Below, piece by piece: positions 15,387 through 60,299 of a DNA stretch of 64,000 nucleotides. Below the pieces are notes generated by a model that saw only the letters and a program-made list of their open reading frames with translations, was not told where the DNA came from and made no database searches. Origin of the DNA: Eledone cirrhosa (Eukaryota); contig OZ024740.1 in assembly GCA_964016885.1 (NCBI GenBank), positions 411,370,001 to 411,434,000 of the forward strand. Reading direction: 5' to 3'. Made by a program: the position numbers and the translations under genes. The stretch's first letter is position 1. Every line of letters begins with the position of its first letter.

Positions 15387-15455
<69 letters not shown>

Positions 15456-15561
15456 TTGTAATAAAATGAAAACGGAATTTCATTTCTCACTCTTAATACG
15501 GCACTTACTTAAAAGGAAAGAATATACTTTCGAACGTTCAACTATCTGGCAGATGGGTATA

Positions 15562-15602
15562 CGGTGCTGATGATAGCTAACAAGCTTGAAACTAGTACAT
15601 CG
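15562..15602 (+). ncRNA. Type I minimal hammerhead ribozyme, intact core
   Basis: CGGUG-CUGAUGA-U-AGCU(AACA)AGCU-U-GAAA-CUAG-UA^CAUCG; 5-bp stem I, palindromic stem III ACUAGU, GUA cleavage site. Confidence 0.9.
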
Positions 15603-15751
15603 TTCCTGTGTCAGTGTTGAACAAAAAGGTGACGTGGTTGCCTTAACACCGTGCGGCATAAATTCAGGCTGTTCAGTTTGTTTACAAACGAACAAAGCGG
15701 GCGCTATAATAAGCGTCCGCTAAACTGATGCGTACATATATGTATGTGTAC

Positions 15752-15816
<65 letters not shown>

Positions 15817-15970
15817 TGCTACTGAAAGTCTGTATACATATATGTATGTACGTATACATACATACTTACATTTAAGTAAGTGCCGTACTAAGAGTGAGAA
15901 ATGAAATTTCGTTTTCATTTTATTACAACTCATCGTTTTCGGTGCGGCTGACCGATTTAACTCACTCGAT

Positions 15971-16018
15971 ATGCAAATTAGGCTGCTCAGCCGTTAATTT
16001 TCATAAGGAAAGCATATA
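15971..16018 (+). promoter_or_regulatory. Octamer plus PSE-like/TATA-like block upstream of the HHR
   Basis: ATGCAAAT at 15971, then TAATTTTCATA-AGGAAAGCATATA; the same block occurs at 36889-36936 (-) in an otherwise divergent family. Confidence 0.5.
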
Positions 16019-16053
16019 CTTTCGAACGTTCAGCTATCTGGCAGATGGGTATA

Positions 16054-16094
16054 CGGTGCAGATGATAGCTAACAAGCTTGAAACTAGTACATCG
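16054..16094 (+). ncRNA. Second R1 hammerhead with core mutation (CAGAUGA)
   Basis: Identical to 15562-15602 except U4>A. Confidence 0.8.
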
Positions 16095-16246
16095 TTCCTG
16101 TGTCAGTGTTGAACAAAAAGGTAACGTGGTTGCCTTAACACCGTGCGGCATAAATTCAGGCTGTTCAGTTTGTTTACAAACGAACAAAGCGGGCGCTATA
16201 ATAAGCGTCCGCTAAACTGATGCGTACATATATGTATGTGTACCTG

Positions 16247-16318
<72 letters not shown>

Positions 16319-16371
16319 TGCTACTGTACGTCTGTATACATATATGTATGTACGTATACATACATACTTAC

Positions 16372-16404
<33 letters not shown>

Positions 16405-19536: not shown

Positions 19537-20091
19537 GTCTGAAAACAGACTAAATAAAGATGGCGTAGAAAATACAAAATACAATGTAACGGGAGGAAAC
19601 AATAGCACCACTGACGATGTTGCAGATGTGCAACGAAAGAACTTTGATAAACTATATATATATGTGTTTGTGTCTATATTGTATCTGTATTATTTTTGAC
19701 CGTTGGTCAGTCAATGGCAACATTGAGGACCGAATAAATTAGATTACCGATATAAAAGACACAGGAGCGAAAACCAACCAAACAGTGAGTGTGTTCTGTT
19801 ATTAATTCTGGCAATATTACACAAATATGACCCTCCCCAAGTATAACAATATTTGTTTCGACACACGATTTCATATAAAAAACCTCGCAAAACTAATTCA
19901 TCGCCGTTATATATATATATAGGAAAATGTTTAACCCGACGGCAGACCTCAAGCCGTTTCGACGACCCGTCGAAACGGCTTGGGCTCTCCCGTCGGGGTT
20001 AAAAATGTTCCTATTACTCACTTAACTACTCTAAGTATTGAGTACTCTGGTGCGTTATGGTCCATCTGGTTCCTTACCACACCTCTTTCGT

Positions 20092-25606: not shown

Positions 25607-25695
<89 letters not shown>

Positions 25696-26422
25696 AAGAT
25701 TTGAATGGATACAGTTTAGTTGAAAGGAATTTATTGACACGTGTTTCTATAACAGTTACATAACCTAAAACAGCTGCTATCTACAAACTTTTAGTTATGC
25801 AGACATTCAATATTTCAATGTTATTATTTACTGTCATTTCATCAGAATAATATTACTGAGGACCTATTTAGTTTTTATAGAGAATATTAGGAGGGAGGGG
25901 TGAAGTTGTTAGAAGAATAGTTGAAGGAGTGGTTTTTCGATAGCAGTGAGAATTCTTGGTGGCAGTGAGTAATTAGATTCCCATCTGTTGTTTTGACATT
26001 TTTTATAGAATATATTATTGGTTATTTTTCTAAATCTATAGAAGGATTAGAGATAGTAAAGATATGCGTGGTTGGTTTTGTGTTTGCACTTAATTAACAT
26101 TCAGACTTAAATTTTTCTTTCAAGTGCACGTATCCTTTCACCCACGCATTCACACACAAATATATTTGCACACCTCTACAAAATACATATACTCACAATT
26201 CACATATTCATACTTACATATATATACACATGCATACACATATATGTACACACATGTATTCATGTACATACTTACGCGCTCATGTGTATACATTTTCATA
26301 CTCAACTTATCTTTATATACACACGTATAGACACACACATATATACATACTTACTCTAGTCCATGTGTACACACATACACATACATACACATCTATATAC
26401 ACATATATACATACATATATAC

Positions 26423-26517
<95 letters not shown>

Positions 26518-27245
26518 TACACATACATACACATATACATATACATATATATATACATATATATAAGCACTTTAATACATGAATACACTTACATCTAACT
26601 ATACACATCAAACATATATATATATTTACTTATTTATATACATTTTCACATATATATACATACTTATGGACGTTTTTAGACACATTCATTATCGCATATT
26701 TGCACCTATTCTCATCAGCATATCTTTCCATTATTAGTGTGGTAATTTAAGGTTATTAATATATGTTGAGAAGAGATTGTTTTTATATTTTTCTAACTAG
26801 ATTAAGGTTTATATAGTTGGGGGATGTCCTTCTTTTATGTAATATTCGGCTTGTAGTGGGAAAAAAGGGTTTTAGTTCTGTGACGGCAGAATAATGTTCG
26901 TTCAATTCTGTTATTCAGCAGTTTCTTCTTGTGTGTGATTATGTAATAAATCTCAAGATTACACAATTTGCAGAAATTTTGGCTCCTGGAAAAGCTTTGG
27001 GTTTTAGCTAATTTCTCCCATTTTAGGGTAAACTTTTGATCGCTATCCCTGAGCGTCCAAGCTTTTTCTGCTAAAGTTGTTACATTTCTTTGGCTCTGGT
27101 GTTTTATTGAGTAAGAATGCCTATACAATCGAGATTTAAACGATAATCTACTGTGTGTAATATTTATATTACAACACAACGGAAAATACTGTATATTTAC
27201 CTCCTGTAAAGTCGAGCAACCCACACAGCAAACGCAACCACAACA

Positions 27246-29581
27246 ATGGAAAAACACTACCTGGATATGTCACTCAAAAACATACCAACCCAAGGTAGAA
27301 AGGAATATTTATTGAGTATGATTCAAAAAACTAATGAATTCATTCGACGTGTCAGGTGGAAAACGCTCCACTATGATAGAAGCCGTATGAACTCAACATT
27401 AGAAAGTGGTGTAAACAACAAATTCGGTTTTAGGACTTGTAAAAACCCACCCACCAACCCACTATTAGATGCATTTGAGCAGGACCTTATGAACTTAATC
27501 CTTAAAATTAAATTCAAAGGACGCAACACCAACAGCAAATTACAGAAAGATATAAAAAAACTACTGGACGACCTTAAAAACACCAAAGGAATTGTAGTAA
27601 AAGCGGACAAAACATCAAACCTGTACACTATGGATTGCACTGCATACAACAACTTCATTCGAAAAGAATTACATAAAAAATATAGAAAAACGAGTGAAGT
27701 AACCCTTAAGCACATCAATGATGAGGCATGCGAAATAGTGAAAAATCTCGGAATCGAAGATAGGACAGGACCACTCTTACCGGCGGTAGCCACCTTCAAT
27801 CTTAAGGACCACAAGGTAAACTTTGATAATGACCCTAAAATTAGATTAATCTGCCCCTCTAAATCAGATATAGGTAAAATAAGCAAATATATCTTAGATA
27901 GAATCATCCCCCAAATTAAGGCTAAGGTTAACATTAAACTCTGGGGGAAGACCCAAGAAGCAATAAGATGGTTTAATAGCATTAGCAATAAGAATAAATC
28001 TAAGTTTATCTAATAAATCTAAGTTTGATATCGATGAATATTACTCATCGATATCACCTGAAACTTTGAATAGAGCCATTAAGTTTGCTAAGGATAACTC
28101 TGACCTTACAAACGATGAAATTAAGATTATATTAGAAGCTAGGAAAACTATAGTCAAATTTGAGAACAGTTATTGGGTACGTAAAGATAGACCCTCTAAC
28201 TTTGACATAACAATGGGCTCTAACGATTCGGCGGAAATAACTGATATTGTGGGGTTATTTATCGCCTTTAGACTCCAGGAAAAATTCAGCAATCTCCACG
28301 GCGGAATATACCGCGACGATGTTCTCCTCCTAGCTAAAAACCTTAATAACCAAAAACTAGAAAAACTACGCAAAGATATAAGAAAACTACTACTCGAAAT
28401 AGGACTAACTATAACATATGAATACAACCTTAAAGTAGTTAACTTCCTGGATGTCACACTCAATTTAAACTCTGGTTTGATTAAACCGTTTCATAAATTG
28501 AATGAAAATCTCAAATACGTAAATGTTGGGTCTAACCACCCCATCTCTATAATTAAATCTATCCCTAAAAATATTTCCCTTAGAATCTCGGGTCTATCTT
28601 CTAACATACAAGTTTTTAAGGAACACGCCGAGTACTACGATAACGCCCTTAGTAAAGCAGGCTACCTCAACAAAATAGAGTACATAGATGGGAACAATCA
28701 AAACACCCAAAATAAATCCCACATAGGTAGATATAATAACACAACACCAAACCACACTTACTACCATAGTATGCACACCAGTAAACCAACAAACAAAACT
28801 AATAGAAAGCGATGCAAAGAGTACTTATGGTATAACCCCGAATACAATAGTTCCATTAGTACAAATTTACCAGTACTCTTCTTTAAAATAATTAAAAGAC
28901 ATTTTCCCACATCACACAAATACCACAAAATCCTAAACCCTACCACTATAAGACTGTCATACTCTACAGCGTTAAACCTTGAACAACACATAAAAAAGAT
29001 CAATACTAGAAGGTTAAACGAAAACACTAAGAACTTAAGTACAAAGAACACAAAAAAAAACAGTAGACAATACACTACAGAACATAAATAAACCACACCT
29101 AAGTTCGTCCGCAATACTACTCCAGAGAAAACCCAACGTACACAACTGTAACTGCACCTATCCTGACAACTGCCCCCTCGGCAATAACTGCCTGGAAAAA
29201 AAAAAAATTATTTATAAGTGTACCATTAAATCCGGAGGCAACGAGTGGTATTACGTGGGATCAACGGCAACATCGTTTAAATCTCGATTGTATAGGCATT
29301 CTTACTCAATAAAACACCAGAGCCAAAGAAATGTAACAACTTTAGCAGAAAAAGCTTGGACGCTCAGGGATAGCGATCAAAAGTTTACCCTAAAATGGGA
29401 GAAATTAGCTAAAACCCAAAGCTTTTCCAGGAGCCAAAATTTCTGCAAATTGTGTAATCTTGAGATTTATTACATAATCACACACAAGAAGAAACTGCTG
29501 AATAACAGAATTGAACGAACATTATTCTGCCGTCACAGAACTAAAACCCTTTTTTCCCACTACAAGCCGAATATTACATAA
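27246..29581 (+). pseudogene. PLE-A ORF: reverse transcriptase plus C-terminal GIY-YIG endonuclease, frameshifted
   Basis: KADKT, FDIDEYYSSI, TMGSNDSAEI, GIYRDD, VNFLDVT, CNC-x5-CPLGNNCL, IIYKC...YYVGST..FKSR..H, CKLCNLE; breaks at ~28010 (15-bp duplication), ~29060 and ~29200 (A-runs). Confidence 0.92.
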
Positions 29582-29738: not shown

Positions 29739-29898
29739 AAAAACGTCCATAAGTATGTATATATATGTGAAAATGTATATAAATAAGTAAATATATATAT
29801 ATGTTTGATGTGTATAGTTAGATGTAAGTGTATTCATGTATTAAAGTGCTTATATATATGTATATATATATGTATATGTATATGTGTATGTATGTGTA

Positions 29899-29997
<99 letters not shown>

Positions 29998-30571
29998 GTA
30001 TATATATGTATGTATATATGTGTATATAGATGTGTATGTATGTGTATGTGTGTACACATGGACTAGAGTAAGTATGTATATATGTGTGTGTCTATACGTG
30101 TGTATATAAAGATAAGTTGAGTATGAAAATGTATACACATGAGCGCGTAAGTATGTACATGAATACATGTGTGTACATATATGTGTATGCATGTGTATGT
30201 ATATGTAAGTATGAATATGTGAATTGTGAGTATATGTATTTTGTAGAGGTGTGCAAATATATTTGTGTGTGAATGCGTGGGTGAAAGGATACGTACACTT
30301 GAAAGAAAAATTTAAGTCTGAATGTTAATTAAGTGCAAACACAAAACCAACCACGCATATCTTTACTATCTCTAATCCTTCTATAGATTTAGAAAAATAA
30401 CCAATAATATATTCTATAAAAAATGTCAAAACAACAGATGGGAATCTAATTACTCACTGCCACCAAGAATTCTCACTGCTATCGAAAAACCACTCCTTCA
30501 ACTATTCTTCTAACAACTTCACCCCTCCCTCCTAATATTCTCTATAAAAACTAAATAGGTCCTCAGTAATA

Positions 30572-30627
30572 TTATTCTGATGAAATGACAGTAAATAATA
30601 ACATTGAAATATTGAATGTCTGCATAA
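30572..30627 (+). ncRNA. Hammerhead-like motif in the PLE-A pLTR
   Basis: CUGAUGA-AAUG...CAUU-GAAA-UAUU(G)AAUG-UC^; stems II and III good, GUC site, stem I poorly paired. Confidence 0.55.
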
Positions 30628-30838
30628 CTAAAAGTTTGTAGATAGCAGCTGTTTTAGGTTATGTAACTGTTATAGAAACACGTGTCAATAAATTCCTTTC
30701 AACTAAACTATATCCATTCAAATCTTTCTATTTTTCTCCGGATTACTTTTGGAACTACAACTGGAACCGTCGAGCAAACTCTACGTGAGCTGATAATCTA
30801 CTGTGTGTAATATTTATATTACAACACAACGGAAAATA

Positions 30839-36449: not shown

Positions 36450-36508
<59 letters not shown>

Positions 36509-36799
36509 CAAATAACGAAACGAAATTAAATTTCGTTTCGTTTGTAACTCACTTTTGTATGACTGACGCTTAAACAATTAAGTTAAAAATGTACATCTAC
36601 ATATGCATACTGAAATACTAGTGTGTATATGAATACACACACGTATACATATGTAGGTGTACCAAGTCTTTCACTGGTCGCTTTACAGTGAGCGGCCCAG
36701 CTATTCTGTATGTAAACACACAGACAAACCGGTTTTTAGAGTCATACTGGTTTTTCGGGGGAACACCTTCCCCCTATTCTCCAGAAAGCTAGACAAGGA

Positions 36800-36842
36800 A
36801 TATTGAACTAGTTTCGTTGTTGTTACAACTCATCAGCAATAT
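36800..36842 (-). ncRNA. Type I minimal hammerhead ribozyme, intact core
   Basis: AUAUUG-CUGAUGA-GUUG(UAACAA)CAAC-GAAA-CUAG-UU^CAAUAU; perfect 6-bp stem I, 4-bp stem II, palindromic ACUAGU. Confidence 0.93.
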
Positions 36843-36888
36843 TTACCTATCTACCGGCCTTTCTGGAGAATTGTAAAAGCACATATCG

Positions 36889-36936
36889 TTATATGCTTTT
36901 TCTATGAAAATTAGTAGTGGGCAGATTAATTTGCAT
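36889..36936 (-). promoter_or_regulatory. Octamer plus PSE-like/TATA-like block upstream of the R2 HHR
   Basis: Minus strand ATGCAAAT-N15-TAATTTTCATA-GAAAAAGCATATAA. Confidence 0.5.
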
Positions 36937-37511
36937 AGAGTGTGAGTACGCACCGGTTCAGCGGAGACGATAAAAACAAATAACGAAACGAAATTAAATT
37001 TCGTTTCGTTTGTAACTCACTTTTGTATGACTGACGCTTAAACAATTAAGTTAAAAATGTACATCTACATATGCATACTGAAATACTAGTGTGTATATGA
37101 ATACACACACGTATACATATGTACGTGTACCAAGTCTTTCACTGGTCGCTTTACAGTGAGCGGCCCAGCTATTCTGTATGTAAACACACAGACAAACCGG
37201 TTTTTAGAGTCATACTGGTTTTTCGGGGGAACACCTTCCCCCTATTCTCCAGAAAGCCAGACAAGGAATATTGAACTAGAGAATAGGGGGAAGGTGTTCC
37301 CCCGAAAAACCAGTATGACTCTAAAAACCGGTTTGTCTGTGTGTTTACATACAGAATAGCTGGGCCGCTCACTGTAAAGCGACCAGTGAAAGACTTGGTA
37401 CACGTACATATGTATACGTGTGTGTATTCATATACACACTAGTATTTCAGTATGCATATGTAGATGTACATTTTTAACTTAATTGTTTATATATATATAT
37501 ATATATATATG

Positions 37512-56603: not shown

Positions 56604-56905
56604 AGAATGAAGAGAGAAGCAGGCGGACGGACAGAGAAGAGGGGGGAAAAAGTAAAACTTAAAAAACTAAAACTAAGTCAGACATTCGAACACTACATTA
56701 CAATGAAACTTATGCTTATTCATTTCTGGGGCCCTTTCTGCCTGTGTGTTTGTTTGTTTATGTGTGTTCGTATACAGCGTGGTGATAATGCCACACAAGG
56801 GCCAAGTGGGATGGCGGATCCACAGATGGCTATGTAAACATACATTCGCCAATCCTCGATAAGAGTGTTTAAATATCGAACATAAACAGTTCGAATAACG
56901 GTGAA

Positions 56906-59900
56906 ATGGAGACTAGAACGTCATGTGACAGACTCTCACCCAACAGGTGCCCCCTGGCTCAGCAGCAGGAACCTGACTGTCAACCAAATACTGCTGATGT
57001 TGGAGGAAGGAGAAGAAGGAAAGGGGCCAGAACCAACTGGACGAAAGAATTGAATATAACTGTTATGCAATGCTACCTGAAAAGTAACCCCAAGGAGAGG
57101 GGCTACAGGAGACGGATGCATAACATCTGGAACGAGATTGGTTTATTTAAATTAGATGAACAAAAATTGGCCGGGCAGGCTCGGGTAATAAGAACTAATG
57201 GGTGGATAAGCGAGCTGGAACTGGAGGAACTGAGCAGAGAGAATGGCTTGGAGATGGCGGGTGTAGTATGCCAGACAAGCGAGCCGGTGGGAAATGAAGG
57301 TGAGGAGGTCCTGAGAACGGAGGAACCACCCGAAGCAGACAATGATCTGAGTACTGAGATAAATAATACCTGGAACAGAGATACGGCCACTGAGGAGATG
57401 AATGCTGACGGGCTAGGACAAGATTCGGTTGACATCCTAAATTTAGTGGTAGATGAATTGAACAATGATAGTGGGAGACCTATGAACCTAAGATTTGTAG
57501 ACAGGAAAAAGTTAAAAGAAACAACAGCTAAGGTAAACAAAGTCATCCCATACCTTGAGGCGAGGAGCCTTCACCAGTGCAACAATATCCTCAGAGCAAC
57601 AGCAAATACGGTGAGGAAACTACTTGGTATAAAAGCGAGAGGAAACAACAGACAAGAAAGAGCAGAGCCGTGGTGGAAGAAGCGACTGAGTGGGCAAATC
57701 GGGGAAATGAGAAATGACATAGGAAAGCTTGAGTCACTACTGAATGGGACACTAAAAAACATAGGCACTAAAAATAGACTGGAAATAAAATACAAAACTA
57801 GGAGTAAAAAGCTAAATATTATCATAGAGGAATTGAAGCAACGCATTGTAGCAAAGAGTGCAAAAATCAGGCGATACGAGAACAGAGTCAGTCAGTATAA
57901 ACAGAACCGCATGTTCGACAACAACCAGAAGATGCTGTTTGGACAGCTTGAGGGCAAAGAAAGAGGCAACGACTTGATCCCTGGGGCGGAGCAAACTAAA
58001 ACATTCTGGAGAGGAATATGGGAGCAGGATGTTAGACACAATGCCCAGGCAGGGTGGATTGAGACAGTACAGAGGGAGATCGGTGAGCAGGCACAGCAAC
58101 AGACTGATTTGAGTATCACAGTTGAAACTCTTAAGGGACAAGCCAAAAAACTAACCAACTGGAAATCGCCAGGCCCAGATGGTGTGCAGGGGTATTGGAT
58201 TAAACATCTAACATCCCTCCACCCGAAGCTGACGGCCATGTTCAATGACTGCTTGGTGTCGGGTGAGGTGCCAGAGTGGTTGACAAAAGGTACCACAGTT
58301 CTGATAATGAAAGACCGAATCAAGGGTAATGATGCTACCAACTATAGACCTATCACATGTCTGCCCGTAATGTGGAAACTGTTGACGAGCATTGTGTCTG
58401 AGGAAATCTACCATCACCTCCACACAAACAACTTGTTACCGGACGAACAGAAAGGATGCCGAAAGAAGTCACGTGGTACAAAGGACCAGTTGCTTATTGA
58501 TAAGATGGTAATGGGGAATTGCAGGAGGAGACACACTGATCTTGCCATGGGATGGATAGACTACAGAAAGGCATTTGACATGGTGCCTCATTCCTGGATC
58601 ACCAAAAGCCTGGAGATCTTCAGGGTGGCGGATAACATCAGACAGTTGCTAGGCAGGAGTATGGGGTCCTGGGAGACAGAGTTGACATCAACTGGAGTAT
58701 CCTTGGGAAGCGTGAAGATCAAGAGAGGTATCTTCCAGGGAGATAGCCTGTCCCCTCTGTTGTTTGTCCTTGCCCTGATGCCCTTGACCATTATGCTGCG
58801 AAAAGTGAGAGCAGGATACAAGTTGGGAAGGGGAGAGCTTACCATCAATCACCTCCTCTTCATGGACGATCTTAAGCGCTTCGGGAAAAGTGAGAAGGAG
58901 TTGGATGTGCTTGTTGACACTGTCCGTATTTTCAGCAGTGATATATGTATGCAGTTTGGTATTGGTAAATGTGGAGTCATTGTGATGAAGAGGGGTAGGT
59001 TGAGCAGAAGTAACGGGATCCAGATACCAACAGGTGAGATGATAAAGGAAATTGACTCTGAGGAAGGATACAAGTATTTGGGCGTTCTGGAGGCTGATGG
59101 CATAAAGAACAAAAAAATGAAGGAATTGTTAAGAACTGAATACATTCGGAGAGTAAGGAGCGTATTGAAGTCACATCTGAACAGCAGAAATGCCATAAGC
59201 GCAGTAAATTCCCGAGCTGTGTCTATTATTAGGTACAGTGCGGGAATTCTGAGATGGAATGTTGCTGAACAGAAAGAAATGGATAGGAAGACTAGGAAGC
59301 TATTGACTATCTACAACATGTTCCACAAGAGGAGTGATGTCGATAGACTCTACCTAAGGAGATCTGAGGGTGGAAGAGGTCTTATCAGCATAGAGGACTG
59401 TGTTCAGATGGAGAAAAACAACCTATACAAATACGTGACCTATAGTAAGGAGCCAATGTTCAGAGCTGTACTGAAGGAGGGGACAGTAGGCCAGGGGATG
59501 TCCAGGGAGGAAATAACATCAAGGAGGAAGAGCAGCCTTAAGGGAAAACCCCTTCATAGTACCTTCTTTGAGAAAACTAAATTTAGAGATCCACAGACAT
59601 GGAACTGGTTGAGAAGAGGAGACCTCAAAAAGGCTACAGAAGGAATGCTAATGGCTGCGCAGGAGCAGGCCCTCAAAACGAAGTGGTTGAAGCACCATAT
59701 CTACAAGGAGGAGGCCAGCCCACTGTGCAGGATCTGTGGAGAGAGAGAGGAGACTGTGGCTCACATTGTGTCCGAGTGTAAACACCTAGCCCAGACCCAC
59801 TATAAGGGCTGGAGACACGATGTGATGGGCAGGGTGATCCACTGGCACCTGTGCAAAGTAAACAATCTACCACATTCTGAGAAATGGTATGAGCATAGGC

Positions 59901-60299
59901 CAGAGGCGGTGATGGAGAACAATCAGGTGAAGGTGCTGTGGGATTTTAGGATACAGACGGACAAAAAAATTGGAACACAATAGACCTGACCTGGTGGTTG
60001 TGGACAAAGAAAAAAGATCGTGCCTGATTGTGGATGTGGCCTGCCCGTTCGACACGAGAGTGCAAGAGAAGGAGAGGGAGAAAATTAACCGATACCAGGA
60101 CCTAAAGTGGGAGGTGAAAAGGATTTGGAACTGCCATGAAGTCAAAGTGATCCCGATTGTCATAGGCGCACTGGGGACTATCTCCAAAAGTTTCCAGGGA
60201 TGGTTAAAGAAAATCGGCCCCTTCACGCTTTTTGGAACGCTTCAAAAGGCATGCTTGCTTGGAACAGCAAGAACCCTCCGATACGTCCTGAATATCTGA
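56906..60299 (+). CDS. R4/Dong-like non-LTR retrotransposon ORF (RT, CCHC knuckle, restriction-like endonuclease) with one frameshift
   Basis: WKSPGPDG, NYRPITCL, IDYRKAFD, GIFQGDSLSP, FMDDLK, YKYLG, CRICG..ETVAHIVSEC, RHD, RPD..VDV..K; frameshift in the A7 run at 59963-59969; (TAA)n tail to ~60431. Confidence 0.95.

Follow-up and report, generated by a model that had tools for sequence, protein, structure and literature searches.

A shared block upstream of two hammerhead ribozymes

How animal retrozymes are transcribed is unsettled, and two hammerhead repeats, R1 and R2, in a 64,000-nt window of the Eledone cirrhosa genome (the window being the whole stretch of DNA that was analysed) raise the question for one lineage: do they carry a promoter, to which class does it belong and how is it kept from copy to copy? 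The analysis names an element, a spacing and a predicted start base. A preliminary description had claimed that the two repeats have different bodies and yet share an octamer and a PSE-like element ahead of the ribozyme. A common block is indeed present at the positions claimed, 15970-16018 (+) in R1 and 36937-36889 (-) in R2, and its TAATT lies, as described, 64 and 77 nt 5' of the ribozyme cores at 16059 and 36836. By blastn, the block is the sole notable non-microsatellite similarity between the two elements (78% over 59 nt, E = 2e-6). Its octamer is TATGCAAAT, and the 12-base element that matches the host is TATGCAAATKAG.

The R1 insertion (locus L001) begins with an inverted 5' piece (15454..15513, -), whose outer end is the second fixed 3' end of the family (unit offset 427) and lies in (TA)n. 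It is followed on the plus strand by a 5'-truncated unit 1 (15513..15969), which begins at offset 34, lacks the octamer and has an intact HHR core at 15567-15597. The octamer-type element TATGCAAATTAG (15970..15981) is identical to the -78 element of one host U6 and two tRNA-Sec genes. Downstream of it come a PSE-like core, CTCAG, scored with a matrix of host PSEs and located 27 bp 5' of the family's TATA (15986..15990), the 11-mer TAATTTTCATA (15995..16005) and a TATA-like box (16013..16019), which reads CATATAC in the window copy and TATATAC in 27/30 family copies. The transcription start is predicted at 16043, at a C|AG placed by TATA+30, and the type I hammerhead spans 16044..16105 (core 16059-16089, palindromic ACTAGT stem III, GTA cleavage triplet). 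The body of unit 2 (16106..16373) runs to the first fixed 3' end (offset ~368), after which (TA)n begins. The window copy is a variant: its catalytic core is mutated to CAGATGA, the sequence being CTGATGA in 25/30 distinct copies, and it reads GCATATAC where 27/30 copies have the family form GTATATAC.

R2 (locus L031) lies on the minus strand. Its inverted 5' piece (37280..37489, +) stops in (TA)n at the fixed end at offset 365, and unit 1 (36938..37279) is truncated at offset 125, close to the cleavage site. The octamer-type element (36926..36937) reads TATGCAAATTAA in the window, the family form being TATGCAAATTAG in 29/30 copies. CCCAC occupies the core position (36917..36921), at an offset equal to that of R1, and fails the host-PSE matrix; TAATTTTCATA (36903..36913) and a weak TATA-like box, CATATAAC (36888..36895), follow. 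The start is predicted at 36864, a C|AG at offset 72 as in R1. The type I hammerhead (36776..36871, core 36836-36806, GTT triplet) has a long stem I that reaches 7 nt 5' of the predicted start (z = -4.9, 0/200 shuffles); apparent compensatory change across that start was discounted, being mostly one-sided C-G to U-G. The body of unit 2 (36502..36775) extends to the fixed 3' end at offset 434, past a T5 run, and again gives way to (TA)n.

An Rfam search of the window at the gathering score returned no family, so the HHR assignment rests on the core pattern, stems I-III and conservation within the families. With fewer than two intact ribozymes following a block, each of the window copies is probably inert as a source element.

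R1 and R2 families across the genome

In the 3.0-Gb genome that contains the window, an exact pattern of octamer, TAATTTTCATA and CTGANGA had 16,970 matches, and the reversed pattern had none. Full-length matches to the window copies were 97-98% identical for R1 and ~99% for R2. R1 and R2 are young, high-copy families of type I hammerhead repeats with units of ~468 bp, dispersed as dimers to multimers, one array on contig C1 having at least 30 units. Tandem units overall measure 461-522 bp, mostly 466-468 bp in R2 (22/25 distinct units) and ~468-522 bp in R1, which has a variable (TA)n inside. Each unit carries a type I hammerhead, whose stem III is short and palindromic, and the hammerhead core is intact in 25/30 R1 and 26/30 R2 exact-type copies. 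The 15 longest open reading frames in 90 loci were microsatellite frames and one flanking frame, and internal A and B boxes were found in 0/19 R1 and 0/25 R2 units. Metazoan non-LTR retrozymes are described as short, non-coding, Penelope-linked tandem units with a type I HHR (PMC7229834; preprint 10.64898/2026.07.22.740005), and by sequence criteria R1 and R2 belong with them. One R2 unit is covered by four unlabelled contig runs, which cannot show start, strand or level.

The bodies of R1 and R2 have diverged, as described, without being unrelated: the units align at 61% identity, compared with a mean of 51% and a maximum of 54% in 100 shuffles. By region, identity is 100% in the octamer and TAATTTTCATA, 75% in the HHR core and 46-62% in the other parts. 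Judged from this alignment, the two families are distant homologues, and for that reason their agreement alone is not independent evidence for the block. The octamer has the fewest variants among 11 regions in both families, with 0.003 per site per copy against 0.021 and 0.040 in the bodies (30 distinct copies each of R1 and R2). The expectation that the block is better conserved than the body holds for the octamer and does not extend to the R1 TATA box (0.019 vs 0.021).

The shared element in host promoters

Rfam searches of the genome gave loci for U1, U2, U3, U4, U5, U6, U6atac, U11, U12, MRP, RNase P, 7SK, SRP and tRNA-Sec. The element TATG[CG][AT]AAT[GT]AG occurs at -76 to -79, together with a TATA at -30/-31, in three U6 promoter types and likewise in the best U6atac, MRP and both best tRNA-Sec loci, after 13/19 U6 loci that lacked a motif in promoter orientation 5' of the start, two further U6 loci with the motif at about -270, 5/6 U6atac and 2/4 tRNA-Sec loci had been set aside as probable pseudogenes. 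A C-rich motif lies at +15 to +18 from the octamer in these promoters too. No 12-mer was found near the start of U1 (0/7), U2 (0/5) or U5 (0/6), and it is absent from 7SK, RNase P and SRP. In one U6 array on contig C19 (L084), a SINE-like insertion splits the TATA region of one copy and displaces its octamer to -270.

The U1, U2, U5, U4, U11, U12 and U3 loci have an ATCAGT/ACCAGC-type core at -56 to -59 (ATCAGT at -57 on U1, U2 and U5), usually a TATA-like box near -30, and AATTA at about -85. The distance from core to TATA is 26-29 bp in 18/21 of these Pol II loci and 31-34 bp in host Pol III-class genes. At -109, one of the U4 loci carries ATGGAAAT, and one U3 gene (L287) ends in a T7 run, yet its promoter has Pol II spacing. 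Both classes share a distal element, TTACYTCCC or a close variant, at -255 to -288. RNase P and 7SK are presumed Pol III genes. Their loci (L202 and L277) carry ATCAGT at -67 and -64, respectively; the spacing is longer and the octamer is missing, which makes two kinds of type-3 promoter in this host. A by-product is a host promoter map of practical use for the design of guide-RNA promoters, with the octamer at -78 (U6 class), ATCAGT at -57 (U1/U2/U5) and a distal TTACYTCCC common to both classes.

The similarity to host snRNA promoters anticipated for the block is thus found, in the proximal element of U6, U6atac, MRP and tRNA-Sec, and R1 and R2 carry this U6-type proximal element, TATGSWAATKAG. 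The positions of the 12-mer and of TTACYTCCC in host promoters identify the octamer as the proximal element of the U6 class (-78) and not as the distal snRNA enhancer. We rejected the distal assignment, for in host promoters the distal place, at about -260, is taken by TTACYTCCC, which 0/52 of the element copies examined below have. The AATTA of the Pol II genes is missing from the elements as well.

Further hammerhead families with the element

A search pattern that avoids the R1/R2 majority and requires the motif with an HHR at 60-95 nt spacing gave 880 matches, compared with 9 in an equal window shifted by 65 nt and none for the reversed pattern. The 52 copies examined (30 loci returned, 20 picked from the first 100 listed of the 880 and the two window copies) fall into seven families, R1-R7, five of them beyond R1 and R2 and barely alignable. 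Identity between families downstream of the motif is 52-58%, with a mean of 50% and a maximum of 57% in shuffles; one singleton at 61% was merged into R5.

Features that were not part of the search pattern recur at fixed positions. A strict TATAWA lies at offset 38-52 in 28/52 copies and elsewhere in the region in 1/52, although in none of the four R2 copies; C occupies +17 in 94% and A +18 in 85% (family-weighted). The TATA lies at offset 40-44 in R1, R2, R3, R4 and R7. A Y|AG follows exactly 30 nt 3' of the TATA in R1, R3 and R7, and R2 has it at that offset too, so that the predicted starts of these four families resemble those of host U1 and U4; predicted starts in R4 are scattered. R5 and R6 have the TATA at 46-48 and often a predicted Y|GTGG start, as in host U6-class genes. 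On this geometry, R5 and R6 are candidates for true Pol III hammerhead elements (loci L158, L173, L177, L223, L227-L230 and L242). Several R5 copies have a T run ~50-70 nt past the HHR core. A combined geometry pattern had 2,376 matches, and all 100 matches listed are R2. A 3'-box-like pattern was found in 1/44 units.

HHR families without the motif also exist: it is carried by 0/18 Rfam matches and is missing from 12/14 window sites. HHR-like cores of several other families, with no octamer-type element upstream, lie in the window at 19611 (+), 25350 (+), 45762 (-), 9295 (-), 4838 (-), 54505 (-), 23022 (-) and 17008 (-). A further family, separate from these and present in many copies (loci L253-L270), has a canonical type I HHR that scores above the Rfam Hammerhead_1 cut-off and lacks the octamer-type element.

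Putative promoter core and choice of polymerase

At +15 from the octamer, R1 has CTCAG and R2 has CCCAC, and the YCA of these pentamers, just 5' of TAATTTTCATA, is the PSE-like core. A PSE matrix trained on host Pol II genes only, with 2000 spacer shuffles for each of the seven families tested, peaks at +15 in 10/10 R1 copies, 11/14 R4 copies and the one R7 copy. For R1, 12/2000 shuffles reach the observed score (one of seven tests); R4 is not significant at fixed spacing (257/2000), and the matrix is failed by R2 (802/2000) and also by R3, R5 and R6. The same matrix detects no PSE in U6-class host genes, where we infer that the +15 offset may be the position of the PSE core.

Taking these elements together, it is likely that the block is an upstream promoter of the host snRNA type, whichever polymerase uses it. 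We lean, with some reserve, towards its use by Pol II, in which case TATGCAAATKAG, the PSE-like core and the TATA-like box would direct a start ahead of the hammerhead, ~16 (R1) or 28 (R2) bases 5' of its core. Three points speak for Pol II: the spacing, the C|A start and the T runs that have to be read through. Pol III is favoured by the octamer, which in the host belongs to genes of that class. R1 and R2 have a core-to-TATA spacing of 26-28 bp, as host Pol II genes do, and a Y|A start, as predicted from TATA+30; their octamer-to-TATA distance is 41-43 bp, compared with 46-48 bp in host octamer genes, and none of the host genes examined combines the octamer with Pol II spacing. Judged by its parts, the putative promoter is a hybrid and a full member of neither host class. 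In Drosophila, the spacing of promoter elements differs according to the polymerase (PMC1761439), and by analogy we infer that this rule may apply to R1 and R2.

The alternative that survives best, which we nevertheless regard as rather unlikely, is a type-3 Pol III promoter as in U6, in which octamer and TATA recruit Pol III and leaky T4/T5 runs now and then let transcripts extend into the next hammerhead. In the host, the 12-mer is indeed confined to genes of Pol III classes, and the sister families R5 and R6 have U6 spacing and Y|G starts. R2 arrays end at or shortly past the two T5 runs of the unit, host terminators being mostly T6 or longer. The first T4 run lies 275 nt (R2) and >300 nt (R1) past the predicted start, which is matched by 14/468 and 45/444 start positions; however, a T4-free stretch is not unusual for this composition, as 377 and 288 of 500 shuffles also lack T4, and we rejected it as proof of Pol III. 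The spacing of R1 and R2 falls 4-6 bp below that of the U6 class, their predicted start is C|A and not T|G, and four or five T4-T5 runs would have to be crossed before the unit RNA included the promoter. The spacing of 46-48 bp with a G start is instead found in R5 and R6.

A tentative history, which we hold to be possible rather than probable, is that a radiation of ribozyme repeats mobilized by Penelope captured the compact U6-class promoter of the host and maintains it through tandem read-through, that a core-to-TATA spacing ~5 bp shorter switched R1-R4 and R7 from Pol III to Pol II, and that R5 and R6 kept the Pol III geometry. If true, the families, with >17,000 promoter copies between them, would be a natural series of polymerase switching, and spacing would set the choice of snRNA polymerase in this lineage.

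The TAATTTTCATA hairpin

The preliminary description had taken TAATTTTCATA for the PSE. This assignment fails: the host Pol II core is ATCAGT/ACCAGC, and the 11-mer is missing from R3 and R5-R7, R4 retaining at most TTTCATA. TATGCAAATTA and TAATTTTCATA form an inverted repeat, and TAATTTTCATA, identical in R1 and R2 only, pairs with the octamer as the 3' arm of a hairpin. Hairpins that include the motif were equalled by 1, 3, 6 and 0 of 200 shuffles in R1, R2, R3 and R6 and are weak in R4, R5 and R7 (35, 27 and 87 of 200). The partner arm follows the motif, TGAG being matched by CTCA in R3 and TTAG by CTAA in R2. In host promoters, 0-6 of the 12 bases are paired. The simplest reading is that the DNA element is fixed in sequence and that the RNA partner strand adapts to it.

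The hairpin could instead mean that the block is an inherited RNA element, either a structural hairpin or a binding site for the reverse transcriptase in circular RNA, with transcription by read-through from flanking DNA. The pairing in four families, the co-variation of the partner arm with the TTAG/TGAG variant and the common ancestry of R1 and R2 agree with this idea, which we consider improbable all the same. It leaves unexplained why the motif is identical to host promoter DNA, down to the TTAG/TGAG and TATGCTAAT variants, and why a TATA and an initiator lie at fixed distances in families that cannot be aligned; moreover, the motif is constant while its partner varies, and three families have only a weak hairpin.

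Insertion anatomy and the proposed Penelope link

Arrays end and (TA)n follows at 31/32 distinct R2 ends and 26/38 R1 ends. The ends are clustered, at offsets 360-365 and 430-434 in R2 (31/32) and at 358-372 and 418-430 in R1 (36/38), in loci picked by similarity or pattern and mapped by an ungapped walk, so that some R1 values may reflect indels. Both clusters lie 34-110 nt 5' of the next octamer, and a copy therefore has the block only if it spans a unit junction. The earlier proposal that the tandem arrangement regenerates the promoter is borne out in this respect, since the block occurs at unit junctions only, past the fixed 3' ends at which insertions stop; the start site that it presupposes is a prediction. 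Arrays often have an inverted, 5'-truncated part. In such two-armed insertions, the outer ends are usually one of each fixed type (e.g. 365 and 434) and lie 59-69 nt apart across a hairpin, which suggests two distinct priming sites. The 5' truncation points spread over the unit without a clear peak, and we rejected the idea that they mark the start site.

Partial tandems, an inverted 5'-truncated copy, a one-ended extension and a (TA)n target are hallmarks of Penelope elements (10.1101/2021.04.23.441226), and R1 and R2 insertions show all four. Elements with RT and GIY-YIG domains are present in the genome. An autonomous Penelope partner that shares the promoter or the tail was found in none of 40 loci drawn from at least 150 GIY-YIG matches; the motif was paired with an HHR in 0/40, and matches to R1 and R2 there were separate insertions only. 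A conventional mRNA-type Pol II promoter taken from a Penelope pseudo-LTR (POU site and TATA, of the immunoglobulin type, without SNAPc) is very improbable, for although pLTR promoters of Penelope are described as driving the downstream copy (PMC6765202) and the PSE score fails in 4/7 families, this reading is opposed by that absence from the GIY-YIG loci, by a pLTR family that has CCAAT boxes and a TATA instead and by the U6 geometry of R5 and R6.

Under the preferred reading, an snRNA-type promoter used by Pol II, the polymerase would start at offset 72 and read through the T4/T5 runs and the promoter of the next unit. Such read-through RNA would be needed, since in R2 the pairing of stem I includes bases 5' of the predicted start. 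Cleavage at two hammerheads in succession, which probably act as dimers given the palindromic stem III, would release a unit-length RNA with the promoter near its 3' end. A Penelope-type RT/GIY-YIG enzyme would then copy this RNA, as a circle or a multimer, from one of the two fixed sites into (TA)n, and the promoter would be regained only by copies that cross a unit junction. TAATTTTCATA may be kept because it pairs with the octamer in the unit RNA.

Comparison with known systems

Like metazoan non-LTR retrozymes, R1 and R2 range from dimers to long multimers, have a short palindromic stem III and are proposed to be mobilized in a Penelope-like manner; their units, at 461-522 bp, exceed the range of 150-450 bp given in the published accounts consulted. 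The main texts of the two sources cited above for these elements describe no element promoter: in PMC7229834 the word occurs twice, both times for T7, and in the preprint 0 times. With host U6, U6atac, MRP and tRNA-Sec promoters, R1 and R2 have in common the 12-mer, the C-rich motif (+15 to +18) and a TATA placed 30 bp ahead of the predicted start; they differ in a spacing 4-6 bp shorter, a predicted start at A and not G, and the lack of a distal TTACYTCCC.

The promoter of newt satellite 2 combines an octamer and a PSE. In satellite 2, each unit of an HHR tandem repeat contains an snRNA-type promoter, and transcription is by Pol II (Coats, Zhang and Epstein 1994, cited in PMC2220036). R1 and R2 share this arrangement of an snRNA-type promoter within a hammerhead tandem unit, but their octamer-type element adjoins the core, at -73, and equals a Pol III-class element of the host, and here there are also a TATA-like box, seven families and two geometries.

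SM-alpha, a SINE-like HHR repeat of Schistosoma, has a tRNA-type internal promoter. This promoter lies at the 3' end of the cleaved monomer (PMC6765202), so that tandem copies are needed. It is a Pol III promoter, in contrast to R1 and R2, which have neither an A nor a B box. The logic of a tandem promoter is already known from newt satellite 2, Schistosoma and Penelope. For a U6-class element in HHR repeats, we found no account in the open-access literature searched; supplements on bioRxiv could bear on it. The arrangement offers a retroelement a way to keep an external promoter, which ordinary SINEs cannot do, and suggests that the solution of newt satellite 2 has recurred in a distant animal. 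R1-R7 provide a natural series for the choice between Pol II and Pol III at snRNA promoters.

Penelope-like elements resemble R1 and R2 in their partial tandems, inverted 5'-truncated copies, one-ended extensions and (TA)n targets, and in having the start site supplied by an upstream partner in the pLTR arrangement. R1 and R2 differ in lacking an ORF and in an extension of 59-69 nt compared with 30-40 in Penelope, and the 40 host GIY-YIG loci, a small sample, showed no pLTR homology to them.

The window holds two further structures with possible coding remnants. An 875-nt inverted repeat (25691-26565 / 29857-30731, 98% identity), whose two arms each hold an HHR-like core (25845, -; 30577, +), lies on either side of broken frames at 27210-29578; one of these frames weakly resembles a host Penelope protein (E = 0.003) and has no Pfam match, and the structure is probably a decayed Penelope-like element. 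An open frame of 1036 aa at 56873-59983 (+) has an RVT_1 domain (E = 5e-22) and is probably a LINE.
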